Origin: Carcharhinus amblyrhynchos
Taxonomy: Eukaryota
Direction of reading: 5' to 3'
DNA length: 64,000 bases
Assembly: GCA_965287045.1 (NCBI GenBank)
Contig: OZ336884.1
Span: 68,696,001 to 68,760,000, forward strand
The position numbers and the translations under genes were made by a program. The stretch's first letter is position 1. Each line of letters starts with the position of its first letter. Of this stretch, positions 43,771 through 44,392 are shown one piece after another. The notes beneath the pieces are model-generated. The model was not told the origin of the DNA and ran no database searches. It saw only the letters and a list, made by a program, of their open reading frames with translations.

Positions 43771-43979
43771 AGTTGAATTCCCTGCAGAACAATCTTCTGC
43801 CAGGCTAAGGTTCTACATACCCTGCGGGACCATCGGCTAGGTTTCAACTCACTGCGGTTTAGAACGCCAAGATAACCACAGTTACGCACATTCAGCCACG
43901 TACTACTCCAGCAATACCACCCGTATCAAGCTGGTAGTTGGGTGATAGTGGTCATAGGGTGGCATGAATTGCTCCCGCT
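43771..43979 (-). ncRNA. Diverged HDV-like fold, unit 3 (catalytic C replaced by G)
   Basis: Begins with 28S-like GCGGGAGCAATTCATGCC. P1 GCGGG/CCCGC. P2 AGTTGAA/TTCAACT. P3 ACC/GGT with L3 TAGCCGAT. P4 TGTAGAAC/GTTCTGCA. J4/2 is GGGAA. Confidence 0.7.
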
Positions 43980-43994
43980 ATTTGTTTCTTGACC

Positions 43995-44167
43995 AGTCAA
44001 CAAATACCATCTCCTGTGCCCTCAGAGACGATACCAGGTGGTTCCTGCGGAACGGCTTGACTTGCTGTGCTATAGAAACCAGAAGATTCGCACAGCTACA
44101 AGAGATTGGCAATTCAAGATGGGGCCTTTGCGCATGAATGGAGTGAAAAGCCAAACTCAACCCACCT
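43995..44167 (-). ncRNA. Diverged HDV-like fold, unit 2 (no catalytic C)
   Basis: P1 AGGTGG/CCACCT followed by GG. P2 AGTCAA/TTGACT. P4 TATCGTCTC/GAGATGGTA. The J1/2 hairpin is homologous to unit 1. J4/2 is TTTG. Confidence 0.6.
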
Positions 44168-44229
44168 GTATGCAACTGCAGTCTGACTGGGCCCAGACAT
44201 ACAATTACATCCGCGTTCACTCCTCGGCC

Positions 44230-44392
44230 AGTCGCTTTAGCCATCGCCGCTCACTCGGAGTAGCAGCGATGTTGCCCGGCGGGACTATCGGGGAGGCGCG
44301 ACTCACTGTGTTATAGAAGCGAGAATATTCACACAGCTACTGTAACCATGACTCTCCCTCCCGAGAGTTAAAGAGTCATAGTTACTTCCCCC
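44230..44392 (-). ncRNA. HDV-like self-cleaving ribozyme (R2 5' ribozyme), unit 1
   Basis: P2 AGTCGC/GCGACT. P3 GCC/AGT (1 mismatch) with L3 TCCCCGAT. P1 3' strand CCCGCC is complementary to canonical 28S GGCGGG. GGGCAAC follows as in HDV. P4 CATCGCTGCT/AGCGGCGATG. J4/2 is GCTAA with the catalytic C at 44240. Confidence 0.8.

Follow-up and report, generated by a model that had tools for sequence, protein, structure and literature searches.

This locus raises the question of why a short non-coding element should carry three HDV-like ribozyme folds in tandem, two of which have lost features of catalysis. The element lies in a 64,000-nt stretch of Carcharhinus amblyrhynchos DNA (contig OZ336884.1, positions 68,696,001 to 68,760,000), called the window here, in whose coordinates all positions are given. 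It is an ORF-less insert on the minus strand with an R2-type 3′ end, 1.39 kb long at this site and 1.2–1.4 kb across its family, and its 5′ half (the first 620 nt) consists of three homologous HDV-like units. Read along the minus strand, the block runs from 28S sequence (44467-44393) through the 1.39-kb insert to 28S +1 to +22 (43004-42983), and the entire 28S-plus-insert block interrupts the reverse-transcriptase frame of a LINE. No target duplication was seen at the insertion in the host LINE, and no ORF of 150 aa was found in the element. The idea that the 3′ half retains a remnant of the R2 ORF was rejected, since tblastn with pieces of the R2 ORF returned nothing below E 0.2. The features, all on the minus strand, are as follows.

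44468..44790, minus: host LINE reverse-transcriptase fragment on the 5′ side of the insertion (translation), which we take to be Rex1-like from its motifs
44393..44467, minus: 28S rRNA upstream of the cut site (-103 to -29), in the window copy only (Rfam LSU match and junction)
44230..44392, minus: unit 1, HDV-like ribozyme, with 28S-derived P1 strand from -28, J1/2 hairpins, P2, P3, L3, P4 and J4/2 with catalytic C; P1 and P3 mismatches in the window copy
43995..44215, minus: unit 2, dead fold, with diverged 28S-like leader 44215-44209, hairpin 44210-44170, recruited P1 strand 44167-44161, P2/P3/P4 kept, L3 44053-44046 without the P1.1 CC, J4/2 without catalytic C
44130..44142, minus: 13-nt loop of unit 2 antisense to 28S +32..+44, within the covarying hairpin 44158-44102 (shuffles and subfamily majorities)
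43771..43979, minus: unit 3, dead fold, the most diverged, with 28S-like leader, covarying hairpin 43949-43913, P2/P3/P4 kept, L3 43839-43832, J4/2 with G replacing C
43587..43594, minus: distal 8-nt segment complementary to the L3 of unit 3, with compensatory swaps between subfamilies; predicted long-range pairing (strict scan)
43005..43770, minus: 3′ half of the element, non-coding, no R2 ORF remnant, last ~60 nt matching the 3′ end of this genome's R2 (tblastn and 3′ match)
42983..43004, minus: 28S downstream of the R2 site (+1 to +22)
41790..42982, minus: host LINE reverse-transcriptase fragment and tail on the 3′ side; the reading frame resumes past the insertion

A dispersed family derived from R2

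A search of the same genome with the element gave at least 44 matches (40 scored among 86 candidates); using other parts of it or other subfamilies as query gave 41, 42 and 59. Copies are found both dispersed and in the 28S R2 site, most of them dispersed; three (L017, L018, L024) have 28S flank on both sides and two (L021, L028) have 28S 3′ flanks. The subfamilies form a ladder from D through C2, C1, A2 and A to B, with identity falling to about 60–65%. Along this ladder, terminal branches shorten from ~0.11 to <0.03 (tree of 41 rows), and the D node, the oldest, is separated from the younger subfamily nodes by 0.59–0.87 substitutions per site (40 rows). Subfamily B, the youngest, is found in rDNA and has deleted the antisense loop of unit 2 and a long stretch of the 3′ half.

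The resident R2 encodes an RVT_1 domain (153 protein matches, many dispersed), and its reverse-transcriptase motifs resemble, by eye, those of published shark R2s. Because the element has no R2 ORF, shares its 3′ end with R2, occupies the 28S R2 site in some copies and carries a related HDV-like ribozyme at its 5′ end, its sequence identifies it, almost certainly, as a variant of the R2 SIDEs (non-autonomous R2 derivatives). It is likely copied in trans by the R2 protein; bearing on this, 3′ junctions end at the first 28S bases and 5′ truncations are present. The last 59 nt of subfamily B are 91.5% identical to the resident R2 3′ end (L018 vs. L046), whereas the 3′ ends of older subfamilies differ more from the current R2, which suggests that the tail of the youngest subfamily was refreshed from its partner. 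The 3′ end of the window copy is 78% identical to the resident R2 over 86 nt, 28S included.

Youngest-subfamily sequence was found in part in 20 of 22 sequencing-run rows listed, from several coded organisms, a result that establishes neither expression nor presence in other species; a pattern scan of metagenomes gave 0 matches. The autonomous R2 (L038, L046-L065, L099-L109) is likewise dispersed outside rDNA in many copies; many of these begin exactly at -28, and several lie at the same place in another repeat. The pattern points to a relaxed target specificity and to a secondary site that is preferred.

Unit 1 as the probable self-cleaving unit

The family majority of unit 1 contains P1, P2, P3, P4, the P1.1 CC/GG pairing and the J4/2 C; this C is present in 29 of 32 copies, and L3 is near-constant. 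Alignments of unit 1 with R2 ribozymes gave z of 3.5–7.9, and in subfamily B unit 1 shares a 27–28 nt core match with an R2 ribozyme. Against Rfam, the three units that a first-pass annotation of this DNA had called HDV-like fared unequally: unit 1 was matched weakly by HDV_ribozyme (RF00094; 23 bits, E 0.94, below the gathering score of 50), and no Rfam family matched units 2 and 3. Among 33 intact 5′ ends, 12 start exactly at the -28 G (44392), the predicted cut of unit 1, with unrelated flanks; since two share flanks, they count as 11 independent events. Position -28 is the commonest R2 cleavage site according to the R2 ribozyme survey PMC3774820. These sequence features suggest that unit 1 is likely to self-cleave at -28, releasing the element from the rRNA precursor.

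The copy in the window departs from its family. Relative to the family majority, its unit 1 is mismatched at two places in P1 and one in P3 and is, on these grounds, probably dead too. Together with the retained upstream 28S, the mismatches fit the insertion of an uncleaved RNA, which may be how the window copy arose. In dispersed copies that retain 28S upstream of -28 (window 44393-44467; L075, L038, L064, L106), the ribozyme tends, by eye, to be damaged or deleted.

Loss of catalytic features in units 2 and 3

As judged from sequence, P1, P2, P3 and P4 are able to form in both inner units. Weak spots are P3 of unit 2, with 2 bp in subfamilies A and C2, P1 of unit 3, with 5 bp, and P1 of unit 2 in B. 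The P1.1 pairing (L3 CC with J1/4 GG) is missing from units 2 and 3 in all 7 subfamily majorities, L3 positions 2-3 being TT or AT in unit 2 and AG, GG or GA in unit 3. J4/2 drifts between subfamilies in both units and is fixed in unit 1. The proposal that unit 1 alone keeps the catalytic C holds fully for unit 3 (0/41 copies) and with a qualification for unit 2: no C at the canonical spacing (C-N-R-A context) was found there, bar one old copy if P2 is shortened, and 10 of 37 copies, mostly from older subfamilies, carry a C 2–3 nt before P2′ at a non-canonical spacing.

It is very unlikely that slow or conditional cleavage persists in unit 2 or 3, through a shifted C or in trans. The C near P2′ in those unit-2 copies, the ability of P1, P2 and P3 to form, and a truncated copy (L016) that begins 2 nt from the old leader of unit 2 would fit such activity. 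Against it stand the absence of the P1.1 CC from both units, the drift of J4/2 where that of unit 1 is fixed, and the 5′ ends: among 14 copies truncated within the array, 0 start at the predicted unit 2 or 3 cuts (44167, 44215, 43979), the nearest being 44217 and 44211, so there is no pile-up at either site. In an R2 ribozyme, moreover, a C-to-U change abolishes cleavage, as reported in PMC3774820.

Two independent 5′-truncated copies, L028 and L077, start at the same nucleotide (window-equivalent 43950), where a conserved hairpin has its foot; this may mark a reverse-transcriptase stop. A candidate 5-bp pseudoknot in J1/2 of unit 3 (43934-43930 with 43912-43908) is present in all subfamilies, with wobble changes only.

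Homology and growth of the array

The stems first read from this sequence are all in place. P2 changes in sequence and stays paired (AGTCGC/GCGACT, AGTCAA/TTGACT and AGTTGAA/TTCAACT in units 1 to 3), as does the J1/2 hairpin (GCTGTGT/ACACAGT, GCTGTGC/GCACAGC, ACTGTGG/CCGCAGT); the P1′ strands CCCGCC, CCACCT and CCCGCA are each followed by GG, and J4/2 reads GCTAA, TTTG and GGGAA. The homology claimed for the units exceeds shuffled controls, with local alignment z of 11.3 (units 1 and 2), 8.6 (1 and 3) and 5.3 (2 and 3) and 0 of 2000 shuffles reaching the score for each pair. Folding z, calculated from nested folds with pseudoknots ignored, was -3.9 for unit 1, -2.1 for unit 2 and -1.25 for unit 3, which alone is not significant.

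The bounds originally drawn for units 1 and 3 stand, including the diverged 28S-like leader at which unit 3 begins (43979). Unit 2 has to be extended: its start lies near 44215, at a decayed 28S -28 leader of its own, and 44167, formerly taken as its start, is a secondarily recruited P1 5′ strand. A trailer of 14–15 nt follows unit 1 and unit 2. In a tree of 48 rows the units cluster by position, with unit 2 nested among unit 1 rows and unit 3 more distant. Given that divergence is greatest in unit 3, that unit 2 branches within unit 1, that the leaders run from -28 and that the trailers are short, the array appears to have grown by two 5′ additions of a cleaved leader-plus-ribozyme fragment, in agreement with the double duplication first proposed. 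These additions probably arose through R2 template jumps, with DNA-level duplication as the alternative; R2 template jumping occurs in vivo according to PMC3414825.

A second, older non-autonomous family lies at L093:242-806 (G000 C8), directly after an old main-family copy (L086), to whose 3′ end it is fused straight, as a template jump would leave it. It has a triple array of its own, with an intact-looking first unit and two dead units that are 73% alike and carry a longer hairpin in place of L3; three more fragments are present (L095, L096, L098). The 5′ ends of autonomous R2 gave exactly one ribozyme-model match in 13 of 17 and 7 of 7 loci (20), and the remaining loci gave none. Since R2 loci thus have one match or none, ribozyme multiplication is confined to non-autonomous elements. 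A fourth unit was not found: the loci searched gave at most three model matches per element, with a model built partly from these loci.

Conservation of pairing in the dead folds

Helices were picked by eye on subfamily A, that of the window, and the resulting pairs were scored in the other subfamilies on a sequence-only alignment, using subfamily majorities. In units 2 and 3 together, pairing is kept at 94 of 103 pairs in B (null 77.2, a contrast inflated by B's deletion), 93 of 103 in C2 (null 78.9) and 84 of 103 in D (null 68.2, p 0.0004), where some helices that persist in a shifted register were scored as broken. Under a stricter null that permutes among stem columns only, p was 0.20 (B), 0.003 (C2) and 0.008 (D). 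Among pairs that changed between subfamilies, 17/26, 21/31 and 22/41 stayed paired in B, C2 and D (one-sided p 0.015, 0.006 and 0.071, values that are not independent). CpG transitions account for many of these swaps.

The neutral control came from private variants in 11 subfamily-A copies. They fall on paired and unpaired columns at similar rates (0.020 vs. 0.018 in unit 2; 0.015 vs. 0.015 in unit 3), with a pair broken by 26 of 40. A loose all-against-all search for helices did not exceed its null (21 vs. 12–36). Identity between A and D is 0.72 in unit 2, 0.71 in unit 3 and 0.70 in the 3′ half, so the dead units are no more conserved than the 3′ half. No subfamily lost a unit over the long trunk; the sole unit-deletion copy is a single locus, L075, in which an internal deletion joins the L3 of unit 1 to the end of unit 2 and both catalytic halves are gone. 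Overall, the pairs kept above both nulls in C2 and D, in units that lack the P1.1 CC and the J4/2 C, bear out the earlier suggestion that the inner copies were selected for the fold while losing catalytic features, and the dead folds have very probably been under selection to keep their pairing.

Predicted new partners for the freed loops

A stricter scan of the whole element in subfamilies A, D and B, with criteria tightened after the loose scan had failed, returned a single helix of 7 or more bp with at least 2 Watson-Crick swaps, a result reached in 0 of 60 column shuffles. It joins the L3 of unit 3 (43839-43832) to a segment 240 nt downstream (43594-43587). With A and D only, the helix was reached by 5 of 60 nulls, and with A, A2, C2 and D the scan gave 1 helix against 34 of 60 nulls, which is not above the null. 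All 8 pairs can form in D, A, A3 and B, 7 in A2, 6 in C1 and 4 of 8 in C2. The L3 of unit 2 can pair over 5–6 bp with that unit's old leader in all seven subfamilies. The L3 loops freed by the loss of P1.1 are thus predicted to have re-paired, in unit 2 with the old leader and in unit 3 with the downstream segment, and the dead loops appear to have acquired new partners, beyond mere preservation.

In a hairpin loop of unit 2, 13 nt are antisense to positions +32..+44 of 28S, which lie downstream of the R2 site. A match of this length within 100 nt of the site arose in 4–5 of 1000 shuffles, and anywhere in 9.9 kb of rDNA in 18–29 of 200. The majorities of D, C2, A2, A and A3 carry the same 13-mer (background 0.59 per column), that of C1 differs from it at two positions, and B has lost it by deletion. 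A snoRNA origin was dismissed on inspection by eye, since the loop has no box D after it. Two further matches, one antisense at 28S -210 and one sense of 11–12 nt at -36, were set aside as within chance for 9.9 kb.

Possible functions of the dead folds

The main benefit of the dead folds may be stabilisation of an uncapped RNA, a reading by analogy to which we assign a probability of roughly 0.45. The element RNA would be transcribed within the pre-rRNA and then, on strong grounds, cut by unit 1 at -28. With a new leader-plus-ribozyme added twice at the 5′ end, probably via R2 template jumps, the inner folds would have lost their catalytic motifs and retained their stems, and the freed L3 loops of units 2 and 3 would, as predicted, have paired with new partners. 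Such an RNA, presumably uncapped and untranslated, would have to meet the R2 protein in trans, and the dead folds would form a compact scaffold that lengthens its half-life while it awaits the protein. This stabilising scaffold is favoured because stable HDV-like folds raise R2 insertion or template efficiency, probably by slower decay, in the experiments described in PMC11331408 and PMC12222951. Dead folds are not automatically protective, however, because a catalytic-C mutant ribozyme used as the 5′ module of an R2 template was 'severely inhibitory' (reported in PMC11331408). The two roles first suggested for the inner copies, as modules that bind R2 protein or as blocks to exonucleases, both sit poorly, in their simple form, with published data.

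A rather less likely account sees the dead folds as capture modules that bind R2 protein or the translation machinery, so that the passenger RNA meets newly made R2 protein, with the antisense loop helping to tether it to rRNA. Alu RNA stands in a comparable relation to L1. The fold is multiplied in non-autonomous elements only, and the antisense 13-mer, carried in a hairpin loop, does not vary across five subfamily majorities, both of which suit capture, as do the IRES-like activity of retrotransposon HDV-like ribozymes and the binding of R2 protein to a 5′ pseudoknot summarised in a review (PMC6765202). Yet avian R2 cuts DNA without the 5′ UTR, and its ribozyme can be replaced by a cap, as described in PMC12222951. 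The youngest subfamily, though resident in rDNA, has deleted the antisense loop, and 18–29 of 200 shuffles gave a 13-nt match somewhere in the 9.9 kb. An exaptation reading goes further: an R2 parasite twice stacked dead HDV folds and re-paired their freed loops as long-range pseudoknots, and the antisense loop would bring the RNA-protein complex to nascent rRNA next to empty target sites, or hold it there. We consider this improbable; if true, it would amount to RNA-assisted homing by a SINE-like element.

It is also unlikely, if less so than such homing, that the inner units are duplication by-products of no positive benefit, in which selection removed cleavage and kept self-pairing over mis-pairing with unit 1 or the 3′ end. 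Paralogous strands can indeed cross-pair (those of J1/2 in units 1 and 3, for example), the dead units and the 3′ half are equally conserved in sequence, and many compensations are CpG-type transitions. Against this reading, no subfamily dropped a unit over the long trunk, although B shed both the antisense loop and a long segment of its 3′ half; a second family rebuilt the triple array, and new pairings arose at L3. The stabilising scaffold remains our preferred reading.

Relation to known elements

Unit 1 resembles the R2 5′ HDV-like ribozymes that cut 28S at -28 (as characterised in PMC3774820) in its GC-rich -28 P1 strand, P2, P3, L3, P4 and J4/2 C, and differs from them in one extra A in J4/2 and a P1 of 6 bp. 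Its J1/2 hairpin resembles that of the resident R2, which carries one ribozyme (20/20 of the 5′ ends with a model match). The Drosophila R2 SIDE described in PMC3414825 is 529 bp long, with one active ribozyme and <3% divergence, whereas the element here is a vertebrate one of 1.2–1.4 kb with three folds, two of them dead, subfamilies down to 60–65% identity and mostly dispersed copies. The stick-insect R2Br-deg likewise has a non-cleaving ribozyme that retains its structure, a single dead 5′ one in an element thought to have spread by rDNA recombination (account in PMC4370867); the array here, in contrast, has two dead ribozymes behind an intact one, and the ends of dispersed copies are of the retrotransposition type. 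Retrozymes and Penelope-like elements are also non-autonomous retroelements with more than one ribozyme copy, but theirs are hammerheads that cleave or dimerise (reviewed in PMC6765202), whereas the repeats here are HDV-like, internal and devoid of catalytic residues.

A 2026 survey reports R2 in cartilaginous fish, and the word 'non-autonomous' is absent from its main text (PMC13188248). In the first 400 letters of 13 cartilaginous-fish rows of its Table S2, several of which start elsewhere than at the ribozyme, no case of two ribozyme cores was seen by eye. The literature searched contained no account of an R2 derivative in which dead HDV-like folds are repeated. The family may already carry a name in a repeat database, because Repbase and Dfam lay outside that search, as did most subscription journals. 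SIDEs and R2 ribozymes are already known; what appears new, from the sequences compared here, is the array of dead ribozymes with its predicted L3 re-pairings, the antisense loop and the triple array of the second family.

The element extends SIDEs, described from flies and moths in the literature found, to a vertebrate. Its subfamily ladder provides, within one genome, a natural dated series of intermediates leading from ribozyme duplication through loss of catalysis to structural re-use. It also bears on R2-based gene insertion, where the 5′ structure of the template limits efficiency, as a passenger RNA long selected for use of the R2 protein in trans shows which RNA features pay. Outside the array, the 3′ half of the element holds blocks of 12–18 nt that are invariant across subfamilies (43686-43669, 43481-43466 and 43641-43630).
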